In this document: piece by piece, positions 42,402 through 49,664 of the stretch
Position numbering within the stretch: the first letter of the stretch is position 1
Layout: every line of letters starts with the position of its first letter
Assembly: GCA_017462035.1 (NCBI GenBank)
Contig: JAFTRY010000013.1
Location: forward strand, 425-64,424
Direction: 5' to 3'
Length of the DNA stretch: 64,000 nt
From: Clostridia bacterium
GTDB lineage: Bacteria; Bacillota; Clostridia; Oscillospirales; CAG-272
Notes under the pieces: model-generated
What the model saw: only the letters and a program-made list of their open reading frames with translations
The model's database searches: none
What the model was told of the DNA's origin: nothing
Made by a program: the position numbers and the translations under genes

Positions 42402-42502
42402 AAAAGAAGAGAACAGCCTCTGTTCTGTCCGTATCATTGACAACGGTACAAGATTATGGTATAATGGAGAGAGAACGAATTGACTTTGAAGGAGGCGGCG
42501 GA

Positions 42503-43771
42503 ATGAGTTCGATTCATAGTATTTATCTTGCGTTGGATATTCTTGGTGCCATGATCACGTTGATTATTTTTCTCGGCTGTATGGGAGATACCCGAGAAAA
42601 AGATACCCATGACGGAGCCTTTATCGGATATTTGATTCTTTTGCTTTTAGTGTTGATTTCGGACGGGCTTTGTCACGCTTTGGACGGGAACGAGAGTCTT
42701 AGGCTTCTCACTTATCTTGCTAACACCGTTAGCGATTGTGCCGAATATGTGCTTTTCGTGTTTTTTATGCGCTATCTCGCTCAGCGCCTGTATCAGCGGC
42801 GACGGGAGATTTCTCATCTTATCTGGGTGCTTGGCGTGCTTTGCGCTTTGTCTGTGGCAATGTCTATTGCCAACCTTTGGTGCGAATTTCATTTTACCGT
42901 GGACGGCGGCGGAGCTTACGTTCGAGGCGCATATCCTTGGGTTTCCCGTATTTTTCCGCTCCTTTGTCTGTTTACGGCAGCTGTGACCATTGCGATCAAT
43001 CCGAGCTTGAGTGGAAAAGACCGCGCGATCTTTTTCTGTTATCCGCTATTTCCGTTGACGGGTCTGTTACTGGATTATTTCGTGCTGGGAGCATCGTGTG
43101 TGTATATCGGTGTCTTGATCAGTACGGTGATCATGTACACCAACACTTATTCTAAAAAAAGGAGAATGATCGTAGAGCAAAGGACCGCGTTGATGGTGTC
43201 ACAGATCAATCCGCATTTCATGTATAATACATTAACCACCATTGCGTCGCTTTGCGAGCTGGATCCTCCGCGGGCAAAACAAATTACCCTGGAGTTCTCC
43301 TCGTTTTTAAGACAAAATTTAAACACTCTTACTACCAATCAGCTCATTCCTTTTGAGCAGGAATTGCACCACGTAGACTGTTATTTGAAAATTGAAAAGG
43401 CACGTTTTGGAGATAAGATCAATGCGGTGTATGACATTCAAACGGAAAATTTTTCTATTCCCGCCTTAACGATTCAGCCACTGGTTGAAAATGCGGTGCG
43501 ATACGGTCTTTCTGCCAAAGCAGAGGGCGGTACAATCAAATTGTCTTCCTATTCTACGGAGGATTCGTATATTGTGGAGGTCAAGGATGACGGTGTTGGA
43601 TTTGATATGGAGGAGGCTGTCTTTGACGGAAAAAAACACGTGGGAATCGCAAACGTGCGCACGAGACTTATGGATATGTGCGGCGGTAGCTTAACCGTCA
43701 AGAGTATGGTAGGTATCGGAACCAGGGTGGTAGCGGAGATTCCTTGCAAAAAGAAAGGAAGGGGCAAATGA
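42503..43771 (+). CDS. Sensor histidine kinase, LytS/YehU type (His_kinase plus HATPase)
   Basis: Six-TM sensor, SQINPHFMYNTL, LTIQPLVENAVRYG, DDGVGF. Confidence 0.85.
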   Translation: MSSIHSIYLALDILGAMITLIIFLGCMGDTREKDTHDGAFIGYLILLLLVLISDGLCHALDGNESLRLLTYLANTVSDCAEYVLFVFFMRYLAQRLYQRRREISHLIWVLGVLCALSVAMSIANLWCEFHFTVDGGGAYVRGAYPWVSRIFPLLCLFTAAVTIAINPSLSGKDRAIFFCYPLFPLTGLLLDYFVLGASCVYIGVLISTVIMYTNTYSKKRRMIVEQRTALMVSQINPHFMYNTLTTIASLCELDPPRAKQITLEFSSFLRQNLNTLTTNQLIPFEQELHHVDCYLKIEKARFGDKINAVYDIQTENFSIPALTIQPLVENAVRYGLSAKAEGGTIKLSSYSTEDSYIVEVKDDGVGFDMEEAVFDGKKHVGIANVRTRLMDMCGGSLTVKSMVGIGTRVVAEIPCKKKGRGK

Positions 43772-44574
43772 ACATTTTAGCGGTAGACGATGAGATTCAC
43801 GCTCTGAGCATGCTGGAGGATGCTATATCCGAGGCGGTGACGAATGCCCGCATCTACCTGTGTCAAGACGTACAGGTTGCCTTAGAGACGGCGAAGCTGG
43901 TAAAAATCGATATTTGTTTTTTGGATATCCATATGCCTAAGAAGAGCGGTATTGAGCTGGCGGCGGAGCTGAAGCTACTAAACCCGGAAATCAATATTGT
44001 CTTCGCCACAGCGTTTTCGGAGCATATGAAGGAGGGAATTGATCTTCGGATGAGCGGGTATCTGCTCAAGCCTGTTACGGCTCAGGCGGTGAAGGTGGAG
44101 CTGGAAAACCTCCGCCATCCCGTGGAGTGGGACGAGAGCAAGAAATTACGGGTATTGACCTTTGGTAATTTTGAGGTCCTCATCGACGGTGTTCCCGTTA
44201 AATTTGAAAGAAAACAGGCAAAAGAGATTTTAGCTTATCTGATCGACAAACGGGGAACGTCGGTGACCTACGCTGAGTTGGCATCCGTTTTGTGGGAGGA
44301 TGGCGCGTATGATCGTACTCAGCAGAAGAATTTACAGGTGTATGTGGCATCTCTGGTAAAAACTCTGAATACTCTCGGAGCCAAAAAAGTCATTCGTAAA
44401 AACCGTACCTCCATTATGGTGGACACCTCCCAGGTGGATTGTGATTTTTATCGCTTTTTGGAGGGAGACGTTCGAGTCATCAATTCCTTTACAGGACAGT
44501 ACATGAGCTCGTACTCCTGGGCGGAATTTACTACGGGGTACCTGGATGCTCAAATACAAAAATTAAATTTGTAA
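43768..44574 (+). CDS. Response regulator: receiver plus SARP/OmpR-like winged-helix output
   Basis: MNILAVDDE...FLDIHMP receiver. C-terminal LRVLTFGNFEVLIDGVPVKFERKQAKEILAYL...LASVLWED. ATGA overlap with the kinase gene. Confidence 0.8.
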   Translation: MNILAVDDEIHALSMLEDAISEAVTNARIYLCQDVQVALETAKLVKIDICFLDIHMPKKSGIELAAELKLLNPEINIVFATAFSEHMKEGIDLRMSGYLLKPVTAQAVKVELENLRHPVEWDESKKLRVLTFGNFEVLIDGVPVKFERKQAKEILAYLIDKRGTSVTYAELASVLWEDGAYDRTQQKNLQVYVASLVKTLNTLGAKKVIRKNRTSIMVDTSQVDCDFYRFLEGDVRVINSFTGQYMSSYSWAEFTTGYLDAQIQKLNL

Positions 44575-44595: not shown

Positions 44596-44640
44596 AAAAA
44601 ATCACCTGCTATCGCACACGGGATAGCAGGTGATTTTTGT
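44596..44640. terminator. Bidirectional terminator between the two-component system and the fibre operon
   Basis: AAAAATCACCTGCTATC / GATAGCAGGTGATTTTT. Confidence 0.8.
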
Positions 44641-44715: not shown

Positions 44716-45858
44716 TTATTCCTCCGGTAAGCTTTGGATAATACTGTTGAGGGTTATATTGGTTCGATTGCCGTTTTCGTCCAGCTGTCTCCACGTATCC
44801 GGATCGAAGGAATCGTGAGCGTAGGTACTTCCCAACAAATAACCAATTGCTTGCGCGCTGCCATGGTACATGTCCCCGACCTGATACCATTCGCTTCCGT
44901 TCGCGTCTTTGGTGTATACCACGGCATAAACCTCTACGTATGAGCCGCCGGAAACAGCGGTAAGGTCGTCAGCGGTCATAAAAAGGATCATCTCGTTTCC
45001 GTTTACGGTTGTGGTTGTCGGATTAAACCAACCGCTTTGATAAGAATAGCTGTCTCCGGTGGTTTCGTCACCGTCTACGTTGCTTCTTTGAATGACCACG
45101 GTAACCGGTTTGTTCTCACCGTCGATATTCAGTTCCAGCGCCACGCCAAACAAATTCTCAACTGTCTCAACGTCGTTATTCAATCCCAAAAAGCCAACCA
45201 CGTTGCCGATGTAATCGGGATGCAGTGTGTTAGCGTCCAGAGCATCGGTAAGCTGTTGGTAATCCTCCGGTGTATTCAGGATCTCAGGGAATCTTGCCAA
45301 TACGCCGGAAACCGCCGCCACGTCACTGCTTTCGGGCTGCTCTAATCCAAATTGATACTCAATGGTGGAGGTTAGTGTCAAGTCGGAGGTGTCCGCTCCC
45401 TCAGCAAAGGTTGCGGTAACTGTTATGATCCTTTTCTCGTCCGGAGCGATTTCCTCTCCCAGCTGAATATCCGCTTCCATTTGTATGTTGGGATTGGAGT
45501 ATGCCACGATCTCTCCTGATTCATCCGTGTAGGTTCCCCGGACCATAGCCAGATAATAGTAGGGAACCGACGTATTATTCCATACCTCGATTTGGTATAC
45601 CGCTTTCATGACACCGTCTGTTCCTTCTTCTAACGTGACCTTGCTGGTCAATATCGTGTCGGAGAAGAGCAGAGTCTCCTGATCCAACTCGCCAACAGCC
45701 CCCTGCGTTACACCCGTAATAAATATCTCTTTGGGCGGTGTGGCAGAGGCGTAGCCCTGAATGGAAACGTCGGTGGTGACCTGTGCGTATCCCACGAGCA
45801 TGAAACAACACATCAAGGAGAGCGTGATGCTTAAGGCAATCTTAATTCCTGTTTTCAT
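44716..45858 (-). CDS. Secreted protein (380 aa) with a SipW-substrate-like N-terminal module
   Basis: Signal sequence MKTGIKIALSITLSLMCCFMLVGYA followed by QVTTDVSIQGYASATP, shared with the 183-aa protein. GGAAGGAG RBS. Confidence 0.65.
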   Translation of the reverse strand: MKTGIKIALSITLSLMCCFMLVGYAQVTTDVSIQGYASATPPKEIFITGVTQGAVGELDQETLLFSDTILTSKVTLEEGTDGVMKAVYQIEVWNNTSVPYYYLAMVRGTYTDESGEIVAYSNPNIQMEADIQLGEEIAPDEKRIITVTATFAEGADTSDLTLTSTIEYQFGLEQPESSDVAAVSGVLARFPEILNTPEDYQQLTDALDANTLHPDYIGNVVGFLGLNNDVETVENLFGVALELNIDGENKPVTVVIQRSNVDGDETTGDSYSYQSGWFNPTTTTVNGNEMILFMTADDLTAVSGGSYVEVYAVVYTKDANGSEWYQVGDMYHGSAQAIGYLLGSTYAHDSFDPDTWRQLDENGNRTNITLNSIIQSLPEE

Positions 45859-45899
45859 GCTTCCCGCTCTCCTTCCTTTTTGTTTTTCTTAAATGAAAA

Positions 45900-47651
45900 T
45901 CAGTTGTCCTTTGTTTCTTTCTGGTTTTGGTCATCCTCGGTATTGATCATGGCGGTAAATACCTGTTCCGCTTTGCGTCTTACCACGCCGATGATCTTTT
46001 TGAGGGGGTGATTCAATGTGTCGGGATCTACCTTGTAATTGCCCTTAGCTACCTCCGCCTCGCGGATCACGTCTTTATCGCTTGACACGTCTCTGGTTGG
46101 AACCAAAACGACGTCGCCTGCCTCAACGGCTTCACCGTCCGGATCGTAGCGGTAGGTCTTATTGTCGTTGTTTCTCTCGGGCCAAAATACGTCGATCACG
46201 TCAATCCCGGTTTCCTCAACCGTCTCGCCAATGACCTCTTCCACAGCCGCGGTGATCTCGGGCTCCAGAATCGGCTCGGGAGTGATCTCTGCTACGGCTT
46301 GGGGCTCGGTCTCGGCGGCAATTTCCGTCTCAACCTCTGGGGCTGTCTCCGGGGGGATCTCCTCCTCCGTTTCCAACGTCGGTTCGGTCTCTGCCTCCGG
46401 TTTGGGAGTGGGCTCAACGGCGGGCTCGACGCTCGGTGAGGACTCAGCTTTCGCTTCGGATTTCAGCGCGACTACCACGACCTTCACCTCGGGCTTTCCT
46501 TCTGCTTTTTCATCCTTCTTTTCATCCCTCACCACGCTTGGCTGCTCCGCCGGGGGGGGAGGTGTTGGCGTGGAATCAACAAATCCCGGAATTTTGATCT
46601 CGTAGAGATACAACAGCTTGTTGTCCGTAGGAATGATGAACTTCGTGCAGGTCTTATCCTCGTTTTCATACATCAAAATGGGTGCCTGGATGGTGTCGCG
46701 AATCTCCAACATCTCCTCAAAGGTATCCACCCACACGGTCTGATAACAGGATACGTCAAAGAGATTGTGAATCTTTTGAATATAGGATTTGTACTGCGAC
46801 AGAATTTTCTTGATACGGGCGGTATAGGTAATATCCTCCGTTCTGGTCAGATAGATAAACGCCACGAGGAAGAGAACAAGGAGCAGATCGACAATGCCCA
46901 GAACGATGGCGGTGGTCTTGAATACCTCACTGCCTACGCCTCTGGTACAAGCGATCATCTTGGTTTCGCCCTGAGGAACACTGGAGGTCATGTTGATATT
47001 GACCGTCTTGGTGGTCAGGGGGATTCTCAGCTCGGATACGTAGCTATCGGAGCTTCCGCCGGTAAAGGCGTTGCAATCACTGATCACATCCACCTTAAAG
47101 GTCACCACGATATTGCTGGTGGTTTGATCCAGGGAATACGCTGCCAGGAATTTATTTGCCAGATCGTTGTACTGGTCATAGTCAAGAACCGCGATCTCGC
47201 TAATCTGCAAGCTACTGTTGCTCGCCTGGGATACGTTGGTCTGTGACTTAATTTCCTGAGCATGGTTGAAAATCGCGGCACCGGAGGTATTGTCAGTAAT
47301 TTCCAGATTGGCTGTGATGCTATAGGAATAACGGTAATAAACATCCTCGGCGTTCATATCCAGCTTGTAATTGAAGGTCGTTATGATATGATCGACCAGA
47401 GAGGCGACGTAGGATTGATCCTTTTCGAGATAAGGCTTCTCGTAGAACTCGTTGTCCTTCAGATATACCTTATAATCGATATTTCCGCTATCCGTATAGT
47501 CAATATAATAGGTCTTGTTGAGCTGATACGCGACCAATGACGAGATCAGAACAGCTAAGGTAAGAACCACGACCAGAATAGACTGTGTGAAGATCCATTT
47601 TTCACGGTGCTTTCGGTAAGAGAACCTTTTTTTCTTTTCGGCTTCTGACAT
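45900..47651 (-). CDS. Bitopic/two-TM protein with extracytoplasmic domain, Pro/Glu-rich linker and small C-terminal domain
   Basis: TM at about 25-45 and 250-272. PE-rich low-complexity region encoded at about 46230-46555. GGAGGGAG RBS. From memory only, it resembles DUF5305-type partners of SipW-like peptidases. Confidence 0.6.
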   Translation of the reverse strand: MSEAEKKKRFSYRKHREKWIFTQSILVVVLTLAVLISSLVAYQLNKTYYIDYTDSGNIDYKVYLKDNEFYEKPYLEKDQSYVASLVDHIITTFNYKLDMNAEDVYYRYSYSITANLEITDNTSGAAIFNHAQEIKSQTNVSQASNSSLQISEIAVLDYDQYNDLANKFLAAYSLDQTTSNIVVTFKVDVISDCNAFTGGSSDSYVSELRIPLTTKTVNINMTSSVPQGETKMIACTRGVGSEVFKTTAIVLGIVDLLLVLFLVAFIYLTRTEDITYTARIKKILSQYKSYIQKIHNLFDVSCYQTVWVDTFEEMLEIRDTIQAPILMYENEDKTCTKFIIPTDNKLLYLYEIKIPGFVDSTPTPPPPAEQPSVVRDEKKDEKAEGKPEVKVVVVALKSEAKAESSPSVEPAVEPTPKPEAETEPTLETEEEIPPETAPEVETEIAAETEPQAVAEITPEPILEPEITAAVEEVIGETVEETGIDVIDVFWPERNNDNKTYRYDPDGEAVEAGDVVLVPTRDVSSDKDVIREAEVAKGNYKVDPDTLNHPLKKIIGVVRRKAEQVFTAMINTEDDQNQKETKDN

Positions 47652-47665
47652 ATATCTCCCTCCTT

Positions 47666-48796
47666 TCATTTATTTTGTTCAATGGCTTCTCTCAGCCAAA
47701 GGGTAGGGTGTCCTACATAAGCCACTTTGAAGCAGACCGTTCCAACGATCTGTCCGGCTTCAATGTAGCCCATGTCCATTGTCTCATTGGCATCGCCCTT
47801 GGTGTAATACCGTGTGGTTCCGCCGATCTGCGTAATTTGAACTACTCGATGGACGATTTTGGCGTCGCCCTTGGAAAATACGATGACTTGACCCTCTTGG
47901 ATCGCGGAGCCGTCGTATCGCTCATAAATAATGACGTCGCCTTTGTTGATCTCACCTGTCATGCTCTCGGTGGCGATCACCAGAGTGCCAAACCGGAACT
48001 GACAGGAAATAAGCATTACGATTGAAATCATAACAAGGACAGCGGCAACTATACTAATGCCGTTTGCTGCCTTTTTCGCTTTTGTGTGTACCCGTTTCCG
48101 TTTCCTCTCAAAAAGGGCGGCAACCAGTCCCCAGACGGCAAGGGGAGTCAAGAGCCTTATGGCTGCCATCAGCGCGTCGGGGATCGCCGGTGTGGTGGGG
48201 AGCAGGTAAACGTAAAGCGTTGTAATCGATCTGTATACAATGTTGGGAATTTTTCCGTACCGTTTGGAAATGAAATGGTACAGAAGATTGGCGGTGATCG
48301 CCGGGAAGAAAAACAAACCGACCAGATCCATAAATTGATTGAAGCTCTTTAGCCCTTGCAGGTTCGAGCAGATCAGGAGCTCGGCGACAACAGAGGCGAG
48401 ATAGCTCGTTATCTCCGCAAGCTTGTTTTTCTGCGCCAGCAAAACGCTTCTTATGATTTCGATCGTAATGATTATGATCGAGATCGGTAAAATATACTTT
48501 GCGAGGGACGAGAGGGACAGGGGATAGACGGAGTTGTAATAGCCAAACCATATACCGCTTATTTGGATCAGAATGGCGTACAGTGCCGCGATGACCCCCA
48601 TCAACAACGTGACCTCTTTTTTGCTGACTGCGTGGGAAACTCTCTTTCTGACCAAGAAACAGGTCAGGAGGGTCAGCGGAAGCAGCAGGATGGCAGTAAA
48701 GATCCTGCCGCTTCCCACATCCACAAAGAGAGACAGAAGGAGGACCGCAAGGACGGTAATGGAAACCGCATACAGAATTTTTTTATCTCTATTCAT
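47666..48796 (-). CDS. Signal peptidase I of the archaeal/SipW (S26B) type fused to an N-terminal ~230-aa polytopic membrane domain
   Basis: The C-terminal ~140 aa carry the catalytic-type motifs TESMTGEI (Ser), KIVHRVV (His) and TKGDANETMD. Seven to eight TM helices precede them. AAAGGAGG RBS. Confidence 0.8.
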   Translation of the reverse strand: MNRDKKILYAVSITVLAVLLLSLFVDVGSGRIFTAILLLPLTLLTCFLVRKRVSHAVSKKEVTLLMGVIAALYAILIQISGIWFGYYNSVYPLSLSSLAKYILPISIIIITIEIIRSVLLAQKNKLAEITSYLASVVAELLICSNLQGLKSFNQFMDLVGLFFFPAITANLLYHFISKRYGKIPNIVYRSITTLYVYLLPTTPAIPDALMAAIRLLTPLAVWGLVAALFERKRKRVHTKAKKAANGISIVAAVLVMISIVMLISCQFRFGTLVIATESMTGEINKGDVIIYERYDGSAIQEGQVIVFSKGDAKIVHRVVQITQIGGTTRYYTKGDANETMDMGYIEAGQIVGTVCFKVAYVGHPTLWLREAIEQNK

Positions 48797-48844
48797 TTGC
48801 GATCCTCCTTTCCCGGGTTATTTTCTAAAGGGTTTCGTTAGCTG

Positions 48845-49396
48845 TTAGGTAGTACTTGCTGTCTGTGTTCCGGCAGACGCGTTGAAGGTGATGGTGAAGT
48901 CCTCGTTGATGGCATCAGCGGAAGGGGTGAGAAGCTCTACGGTTACCTCAAAGGTAACGGAGGGGGCATCAGAGGTCAAGGTCTTGGCGGCAGTTCCCCA
49001 GGTAGTTGTAATTTTGAATGCAGATCCCTGTGCCTGAGTGATTACAGGTACGGCAACTGTGACATCGTACTCATTATCAGAGGTAATGGTGTAAGTGGCG
49101 GTCAATTTGTCACCCGCCTTGCTCATTCCCGAAGCGGTCAGAGAGATCGTGATATCACCTGGTGTACCTACGCCAGAGGTGGTTTCGATCGTTCCCTTTC
49201 TGGCGGTATCCTCAGCTTCGCTACCCAAAACGGTAGCCTCCTTGATCGAAGCCGCAGAGAAGTATACGTCCAGGTTGTGGGGGGTGGATTTTGCTTTACC
49301 GGTGATACTAAGGTCTCGGGCCAGACCTGCGTAACCAACACCAAGGCAGAGTGCCGCGATCAGCAAAAATGCGATGATTGTTCTTCTTTTTTTCAT
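48845..49396 (-). CDS. Small secreted beta-rich protein (183 aa), candidate TasA-like fibre subunit
   Basis: MKKRRTIIAFLLIAALCLGVGYA followed by GLARDLSITGKAKSTP. The mature part is Thr/Ser/Val-rich. First gene of the operon, with AAAGGAG RBS. Confidence 0.65.
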   Translation of the reverse strand: MKKRRTIIAFLLIAALCLGVGYAGLARDLSITGKAKSTPHNLDVYFSAASIKEATVLGSEAEDTARKGTIETTSGVGTPGDITISLTASGMSKAGDKLTATYTITSDNEYDVTVAVPVITQAQGSAFKITTTWGTAAKTLTSDAPSVTFEVTVELLTPSADAINEDFTITFNASAGTQTASTT

Positions 49397-49469
49397 GTTT
49401 TTTTCTCCTTTGTAGAAAGTTTTATAATTAACTAAAGCCTTCGCTTTATTTAATTCAAAATCGATACGG

Positions 49470-49505
49470 ATGGCAATTTTGCCATTTTGTAAGTCCATTA
49501 TAACA
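49470..49505 (-). promoter_or_regulatory. Extended -10 promoter (TGtTATAAT) plus 16-bp perfect palindrome ATGGCAATTTTGCCAT in the leader of the fibre operon
   Basis: Minus strand: TGTTATAAT at 49497-49505, palindrome at 49470-49485, about 75 nt upstream of the start codon. Confidence 0.5.
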
Positions 49506-49622: not shown

Positions 49623-49650
49623 AAAAGGCAGTTCAAAATGAACTGCCTTC
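49623..49650 (-). terminator. Terminator after the HTH-GHKL-STAS gene
   Basis: AAGGCAGTTC / GAACTGCCTT stem followed by TTTTG on the minus strand. Confidence 0.6.
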
Positions 49651-49664
49651 TTCCATAAATATTC

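Follow-up and report, generated by a model that had tools for sequence, protein, structure and literature searches.

The candidate fibre operon described here consists of four closely spaced minus-strand genes in a 64,000-nucleotide (nt) stretch of a Clostridia bacterium genome (GCA_017462035.1, contig JAFTRY010000013.1, positions 425 to 64,424; hereafter the window). In order of transcription, it encodes a small secreted protein of 183 amino acids (aa), a 376-aa signal peptidase I, a 589-aa DUF5305 protein, and a large secreted protein of 380 aa (Table 1). The small and large proteins begin with a common N-terminal module, and both module-bearing open reading frames (ORFs) are present in the ORF listing; the start of the DUF5305 gene overlaps the stop of the peptidase gene by 4 nt. 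After the predicted cleavage, the mature small protein would have 160 aa, an isoelectric point (pI) of 4.44, and 11.2% Asp plus Glu (D+E), and the mature large protein 355 aa and a pI of 4.05.

Table 1. Features of the operon and its surroundings in the window, and of a second operon type in related loci (L numbers). Arrows mark predicted cleavage sites; Ig, immunoglobulin; HMM, hidden Markov model; AF2, AlphaFold2.
Feature	Position	Strand	Description	Evidence
Four-gene operon	44716..49396	-	both module-bearing ORFs included	ORF listing
Small (putative major) fibre subunit	48845..49396	-	183 aa, inside a 217-aa ORF; predicted Sec-type signal peptide (residues 1-23), donor strand, then Ig-like beta-sandwich	ORF
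Shared module, small subunit	49280..49336	-	residues 21-39, GYA↓GLARDLSITGKAKSTP	BLASTP, alignment, module HMM (36.7 bits)
Ribosome-binding site	49405..49408	-	GGAG, 9 nt upstream of the 183-aa start	
Promoter-like extended -10	49497..49505	-	TGTTATAAT, ~100 nt upstream of the small-subunit start	read from sequence
Terminator of preceding gene	49623..49651		extended -10 lies just downstream of it	
Dedicated signal peptidase I	47666..48796	-	376 aa	TIGR02228, SipW model, Peptidase_S26
DUF5305 protein	45900..47669	-	589 aa	PF17231
Large protein (putative tip, cap or initiator)	44716..45858	-	380 aa; signal peptide 1-25, free N-terminal strand 26-44, beta-sandwich domain 1 45-171, alpha/beta domain 2 179-376	ORF, homologues, AF2
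Shared module, large protein	45736..45792	-	residues 23-41, GYA↓QVTTDVSIQGYASATP	BLASTP, alignment, module HMM (43.5 bits)
Intrinsic terminator-like hairpin	44597..44638	-	17-bp stem, 78 nt past the large-protein stop; separates the operon from the response-regulator gene that converges on it	
LytS-type histidine kinase and response regulator	42437..44574	+	His_kinase (PF06580) plus HATPase_c; receiver plus Trans_reg_C-like	Pfam
Second operon type	L011:5329-8858; L012:5887-8867; L013:6130-8738; L014:6016-9104		three genes	

A preliminary description of the locus, made from the sequence alone, had claimed that the two secreted proteins share a signal-plus-mature N-terminal module while the rest of each is unrelated. 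BLASTP aligned the N-termini only (15/41 identities, E=3e-4) and gave no significant segment beyond them, and profiles of the two families (24 and 45 sequences) matched each other in HHalign with 96.8% probability (E=2.2e-10), a match that dropped to 7% without the first 40-44 residues; the module is thus borne out, and at the sequence level the remainders are indeed unrelated. The idea that domain 1 of the large protein is a copy of the small subunit was dropped on the same 7%. Both families keep G-Y-A, nearly invariant at -3 to -1, followed by a hydrophobic residue (Phi) at +2, L at +6, I or V at +8, G at +10, and A at +12, and the consensus of 144 small-family representatives reads LG[IV]GYA↓A-[LVI]-[TS]-D-x-L-x-I-x-G-[TS]-A. 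The likeness runs from -3 to about +16, whereas the n- and h-regions of the signal peptides are family-specific, so the share of the signal in the module had been overstated. Likewise, the core of the proposed motif is common to both families, but its trailing TP is kept in the large family only, with Pro at P42 in at least 90% of members, as against Pro at +16 in 16 of the 144 small-family representatives. In the window, the small protein has Arg and the large one Thr at +4, both have Asp at +5, and +2 is L or V; an R-[DE] variant at +4/+5 was also found in other members of both families. Between the module-coding DNA of the two genes, 29/57 bases are identical and only 6/19 third codon positions, indicating that the likeness has been kept at the protein level and does not stem from recent gene conversion. 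Many large-family members carry a Cys four residues before G-Y-A that superficially resembles a lipobox; in many others this residue is S, M, or L.

The matched homologues, 24 of the small and 50 of the large protein, come from gut and rumen metagenomes, and the only name given to them by their sources is "hypothetical protein". With the small-subunit profile, 7970 representatives of clusters built at 50% identity were matched at E<=1e-3, of which 220 reached E<=1e-30; generic DUF11-like repeats may account for part of the weak matches.

A 26-column HMM of the module, a scan proposed in the preliminary description, scored the two ORFs at 43.5 and 36.7 bits in the 1.74-Mb genome, with the next best at 14 bits, and a regular-expression scan of the genome likewise found the motif in these two ORFs only. 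Over 401 genomes of the order, the HMM gave six matches in four genomes: four in the window operon and a homologous operon, one in an orphan large-protein gene, and one weak and partial in an unrelated 873-aa protein. The motif therefore does not occur on many unrelated secreted proteins away from a SipW-type peptidase, either in this genome or in the 401, which was the distribution that the preliminary description had named as the contrary case. The order small subunit, peptidase, DUF5305 protein, large protein is kept in 15 loci, whose peptidases are 36-66% identical and whose titled sources are metagenome-assembled genomes of uncultured Clostridia, Oscillospiraceae, or Eubacteriales. A full-length homologue of the peptidase was found in 5 of the 401 genomes, this one counted, and in none of the 25 other searched genomes of the same family; the system is patchy within the order.

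The orphan large-protein homologue (L066:9454-10224, G232:C19) has a full module, GYA↓AISDNLLITG, and follows unrelated genes at 0.77 kb from the end of its contig. Its genome (98% complete) yielded no small subunit in searches with the A1 and A3 profiles, A1 being the 24-member small-family profile, and no full-length multi-pass peptidase, so that the gene is either an orphan or has partners left unassembled. Another locus holds two tandem large-protein paralogues of 320 and 373 aa with slightly different strands, AMSQNLVING and ALSGNVVING (L004:6972-9122), and several homologues are longer, at 446-499 aa as against ~360-380 aa (L009:5370-6869, L010:7968-9413, P0056, P0058, P0063, and P0065); their extra C-terminal sequence may represent variable tip domains.

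The peptidase encoded between the two module proteins matched the archaeal/SipW-type signal peptidase I model TIGR02228 (1e-23, 84 bits against a cutoff of 51.85), the SipW model (7e-12), and Peptidase_S26 (1e-6). Its family-model match and a Ser-His(-Asp) rather than Ser-Lys set place it in the SipW/archaeal, or endoplasmic reticulum-type, class. Residues 1-265 form an N-terminal multi-pass membrane domain with seven strong and about two weaker hydrophobic segments by hydropathy, in which Pfam gave nothing at E<=0.05 over residues 1-246, so that a CAAX-protease-like nature is not supported for it. The catalytic domain (~266-376) is predicted to be extracytoplasmic, since a Lys/Arg cluster precedes the last transmembrane helix (positive-inside rule). 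Ser278, His316-Arg317, and Gly334-Asp335 do not vary among 23 peptidases of related operons; in line with published SipW mutagenesis, we take Ser278, His316, and Asp335 to be the catalytic residues. The position of this gene between the two module genes, the invariance of its catalytic residues, and the near-invariance of G-Y-A all favor the earlier suggestion that the two proteins would be substrates of one dedicated peptidase.

The adjoining DUF5305 protein was assigned by its match to PF17231 (7e-9, 35.9 bits against a cutoff of 29), by two transmembrane helices (30-48 and 254-272) that flank the extracytoplasmic domain, and by its place next to the peptidase gene. In its cytoplasmic part, the C-terminal 320 aa (window 45900-46860), a linker rich in Pro, Glu, Thr, and Ala leads to a final domain of ~110 aa; Pfam gave no match to either at E<=0.05. 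The DUF5305 proteins of L008, L010, and L049 have only 364-378 aa and probably lack this cytoplasmic extension, which thus appears to be an optional module. DUF5305 proteins have been proposed as accessory subunits of signal peptidases in the literature on the Tafi and AbpX systems (PMC11821415; PMC12337348; bioRxiv 10.64898/2026.01.04.697558).

In the cryo-electron microscopy structure of the AbpX fibril, mature residues W2-I12 form the donor strand and E4 binds calcium; AbpX has a pI of about 4 and ~15% D+E, and its 16 N-terminal residues form an unstructured extension in which +2 is aromatic and +4 acidic (bioRxiv 10.64898/2026.01.04.697558). Bacterial and archaeal abpX loci encode a dedicated signal peptidase I with many transmembrane helices, a DUF5305 accessory protein, minor or tip subunits predicted to be joined by the same strand, and nearby histidine kinases (bioRxiv 10.64898/2026.01.04.697558). 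The window operon was connected to this system through L050, a more distantly related operon from the same taxonomic order, which encodes a homologue of the peptidase (full-length homology, E=2.2e-22 over residues 29-370), a DUF5305 protein, and small proteins whose predicted mature chains start GYA↓LWSE, CYA↓KWNE, and SLG↓KWSQ. AbpX (PDB 9SJ2) was matched by two of these proteins, L050_167 (E=1.6e-5) and L050_234 (E=2.6e-4), in alignments that keep the donor strand in register: GYA↓LWSESIVLKSTASTG falls on the AbpX mature N-terminus, xWSETLSLSATISTG, that is, on donor strand W2-I12, and WSESIVLKSTASTG, directly after G-Y-A, pairs with WSETLSLSATISTG, residues 2-15 of the mature AbpX chain. 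The small family of the window, represented by the 150-sequence profile A4, in turn matched L050_234 over its full length (HHalign 95.4%, E=1.9e-8, 174 columns), with 20.7 bits for the body alone in the HMMER alignment, and the registers are consistent, A4 position 73 corresponding to about L050 residue 117 and AbpX residue 47. The small family is also acidic in the manner of AbpX, with a median pI of 4.11 and 13.6% D+E, and has Asp at +4 in 76/144 representatives; its +2 residue is L, V, or I, with F in only 2/144. Its body gave only weak DUF7507/DUF11/Fn3-like matches.

Besides L050 (L050:1658-3353), a second AbpX-like operon of the same order was seen at L052:4562-9601; they encode three and two module proteins, respectively, with W at +2 and D or E at +4. 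In L052, moreover, one ORF is weakly histidine-kinase-like (E=1e-3), and the ORF next to it resembles a response regulator by appearance alone.

The strands of the small and large proteins proved to co-vary between operons. Over +1 to +16, small and large proteins of the same operon share 6.33/16 identities on average, as against 4.15/16 for other pairings among the 15 operons, and none of 100,000 permutations of the pairing reached the observed identity (p<1e-5). The own large partner is the best-scoring one for 8/15 small subunits, and the co-variation stays when one operon per clade is kept (eight or six clades, p<=0.001 to 0.0045). Examples of small/large pairs are ATNGTL/AVTGEL, AVSDDL/SLTDDL, ALTDTL/ALTDTL, and AVSQTL/QQSQNL, with GLARDL/QVTTDV in the window. 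A natural exchange of strands was found in the second operon type (L011-L014), where the same large-protein body (profile E of about 1e-95) starts with GGVYA↓TWxY, as does its small partner, a protein of ~210 aa without detectable relation to the small family of the window. The gene between these partners encodes a SipW-like peptidase with a long C-terminal extension (275-576 aa), and a separate DUF5305 gene is absent. Since the same body occurs with two types of strand, each fitting its own small subunit, the strand follows the partner and not the body. Strands in L052 are likewise matched between partners, GYA↓YWTD and TYA↓LWSD. Neither the GGVYA-type nor the L052 subunits matched any PDB entry. 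Co-variation that reaches +16 favors a shared binding groove over peptidase recognition alone.

Monomer models of both proteins were obtained with AF2. The small subunit (predicted local distance difference test score, pLDDT, 76) was modelled as a signal helix (residues 5-23), a low-confidence strand (29-37), and a beta-sandwich, and its best Foldseek matches in PDB were self-complemented FimA pilins, albeit weak (E=2.5e-3, TM-score 0.34-0.41). The large protein (pLDDT 84) was modelled as a helix over residues 3-25, a low-confidence coil over 26-44, and the two folded domains with the limits given in Table 1; its weak matches included FimG with a donor-strand peptide, and other weak matches of the two models were WSSV VP28 and Fn3-like domains of subtilases. 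TapA has a complete, stable Ig fold and donates an unstructured N-terminal strand to TasA, which is possible only at the start of the filament (PMC10151520). The model of the large protein resembles this pattern, a likeness that is consistent with a similar role without proving it.

From these observations we consider it likely that the product of the operon is a fibre of the TasA superfamily assembled by donor-strand complementation, and we place it nearest to the AbpX branch by way of the L050 intermediate and the gene context. The shared module would most likely combine a cleavage site and a donor strand, because the position after G-Y-A aligns with the AbpX mature N-terminus. Both proteins would be exported by Sec and cut after G-Y-A by the operon's multi-pass SipW-type signal peptidase I, probably with the help of the DUF5305 protein; the cleavage position is drawn from the -3/-1 rule and the AbpX alignment. 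The cut would free an N-terminal extension of ~16 residues that is amphipathic over +2 to +12 (x-Phi-x-x-x-L-x-I-x-G-x-A), and the strand of the 160-aa small subunit could then enter the open groove of the next Ig-like sandwich, giving a head-to-tail polymer. The 355-aa large protein has the same strand on an unrelated two-domain body and might occupy the groove left free at one fibre end, making it an initiator, cap, or tip; TapA plays such a part for TasA, and the tip proteins of AbpX and Tafi loci are predicted to do so too. Its strand would co-evolve with that of the small subunit, since one groove and one peptidase have to accommodate the two of them. The preliminary description had also raised an N-terminal donor strand with one major and one tip or minor subunit, an idea supported by the L050-AbpX alignment together with the match of the small family to L050; this and the common peptidase both fit the data and are not alternatives.

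Several observations weigh against the fibre reading or against its tie to AbpX. Compared directly with AbpX, the small family gave no significant match (HHalign 1.6%; HMMER 6 bits), and its 24- and 150-member profiles (A1 and A4) found neither AbpX nor TasA in PDB. The four proteins and the isolated N-termini (53-55 residues) gave no TasA/camelysin (Peptidase_M73), DUF1102, or SipW-cognate signal match at E<=0.1 in Pfam or at E<=10 in NCBIfam, searches in which the HMMER filters drop most matches above E~0.1, so very weak ones may be missing; nor was an AbpX or Tafi model hit in Pfam, NCBIfam, or PDB. Foldseek searches of the models against PDB returned no TasA, AbpA, or AbpX, with top TM-scores of 0.34-0.41 for the small subunit. 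The aromatic residue at +2, a hallmark of AbpX, is replaced by L, V, or I; at +4 the window proteins have Arg or Thr, with the Asp at +5, and since +4 is not acidic the calcium-bridging role of E4 may not apply here. Conceivably, the cut could fall instead at a second G-x-A (+10 to +12), in which case the strand would be removed, and no cell-wall anchor (LPXTG, SLH) was found in the operon.

Among other explanations, the one that survives best, though we judge it unlikely, is that the module serves only for recognition and cleavage, and that the two proteins are independent secreted cargoes, such as an adhesin and an enzyme-like protein, that do not co-assemble. Within the module, conservation is highest at G-Y-A, the peptidase gene always lies between the two genes, and co-variation would also be expected if both substrates track a shifting peptidase specificity. 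Conservation and co-variation reach +16, however, whereas signal peptidase I is expected to contact its substrate around the scissile bond less far than that. Moreover, the segment shows beta-strand periodicity and is aligned with the AbpX donor strand established by structure (bioRxiv 10.64898/2026.01.04.697558), and the small subunit is linked through an intermediate to a fibre-forming family. Considerably less probable is an uncleaved signal peptide that acts as a membrane anchor, with the strand as a juxtamembrane contact to the DUF5305 protein or the peptidase complex, giving surface display without a polymer; the lack of a cell-wall anchor in the operon and the long helices of the AF2 models (residues 5-23 and 3-25) would agree with it, but G and A at -3 and -1 fit the rules of signal peptidase I, the operon peptidase has an intact catalytic set, and the homologous AbpX, TasA, and TafA are cleaved. 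That the likeness is a by-product of recombination or chance without shared function, or that the proteins are lipoproteins or type IV pilin-like, is hardly credible and already largely refuted: the Cys before G-Y-A in many large-family members superficially suggests a lipoprotein, but it is S, M, or L in many others, third codon positions show no recent conversion, the motif is kept in both families while the peptidases diverge to 36% identity, and the operon has neither a G↓F-T-L-x-E class III motif nor a prepilin peptidase or Lsp gene. A type IV pilin or class III signal had been rejected separately, as the n-region runs straight into the h-region without a G↓(F/M)-x-x-x-E motif and a prepilin peptidase is absent from the operon.

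More tentatively, the 16-residue strand could be an operon-specific address code, an exchangeable cassette that directs an accessory "head" protein to the fibre it can prime or cap. What points to this is the co-variation of the strand between partners and the presence of two unrelated strand types, GYA↓x-Phi-x-D-x-L-x-I-x-G and GGVYA↓TWxY, on one and the same 380-aa body; were it true, the gut Clostridia would possess a very large and so far unannotated stock of orthogonal, self-assembling fibres whose tips can be swapped. The donor-strand principle itself is already known from TapA/TasA, Tafi, and AbpX, and the locus layout was published in 2025-2026; what is new here is a large unnamed Clostridia branch, its 380-aa partner family, and the quantitative evidence from co-variation and strand swap. 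A function is thereby proposed for a large, wholly unannotated set of proteins of gut and rumen Clostridia, which would place them in the TasA/AbpX class of biofilm or surface fibres so far studied in Bacillus and archaea, and the co-variation and strand swap suggest how accessory proteins are paired to their own fibre, which would be useful for protein-fibre engineering.

Of the described systems, the closest are the AbpX loci, which occur in archaea, Bacillota, and Chloroflexota (bioRxiv 10.64898/2026.01.04.697558). As with Pyrodictium abyssi AbpX (PDB 9SJ2, 9RHP), a small acidic subunit has a putative 16-residue donor strand right after a predicted signal peptidase I site, and it is accompanied by a signal peptidase I with many transmembrane helices, a DUF5305 accessory protein, a larger putative tip or minor protein with the same strand, and neighboring histidine kinases; the L050 subunits add a link in sequence. 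Apart from the insignificant direct match, the non-aromatic +2, and the Asp at +5 in the window, the operon differs in its peptidase, which has ~8-9 hydrophobic segments and no C-terminal transmembrane helix as against the 10 transmembrane helices reported for the AbpX type, in the weakly DUF7507/DUF11/Fn3-like subunit body without an SLH or LPXTG anchor, and in its 380-aa partner family, which has no described relative.

In tapA-sipW-tasA of B. subtilis, similarly, two SipW substrates flank or adjoin the peptidase gene (PMC10151520; PMC9674648), and TapA is an accessory protein with a complete fold that gives an unstructured N-terminal strand to the major subunit and so starts the filament. 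Unlike that system, the window operon shows no Peptidase_M73/TasA or SipW-cognate signal (TIGR04088) match, SipW lacks the multi-pass N-terminal domain, B. subtilis lacks the DUF5305 partner, and the large protein is unrelated to TapA. The haloarchaeal Tafi system comprises the TafA/E pilins, the TafC tip, the TafD peptidase, and TafG, a DUF5305 protein proposed to assist TafD; TafD is needed for processing of the TafA pilin, and tafD deletion abolishes both processing and fimbriae (PMC11821415; PMC12337348). Tafi and tafi-like Sec clusters share with the window operon the pair of peptidase and DUF5305 protein, pilins of 150-200 aa, and a two-domain tip of ~300 aa, and have been modelled as donor-strand oligomers; Tafi is, however, archaeal and Tat-dependent in haloarchaea, TafD has four transmembrane helices and an extra Ig-like domain, and the window operon has no DUF1102 match and no TafF-like membrane anchor. 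The chaperone-usher pilins FimA and FimG, the best if weak fold matches in PDB, have an incomplete Ig fold completed by the N-terminal extension of a neighbor, but they are Gram-negative proteins that need a periplasmic chaperone and an outer-membrane usher, have no sequence relation to the proteins described here, and are capped by a tip adhesin without a donor strand.

The 183-aa start of the small subunit was taken as the correct one, since the small-subunit homologues all begin with MKKRR, a GGAG sequence lies upstream, and the in-frame ATG of the 217-aa ORF is overlapped by the promoter-like extended -10. A consensus promoter scan reported no -35/-10 pair at this site, and the extended -10 is thus a sequence observation only. 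On the other side of the operon, the histidine kinase and response regulator genes converge on it and share the terminator-like hairpin. In seven related loci (L001, L004, L005, and L055-L058), such a pair lies directly upstream and co-directional, and this conserved linkage indicates that it is probably a regulator of the fibre system; the adjacent but convergent arrangement in the window suggests a local inversion.

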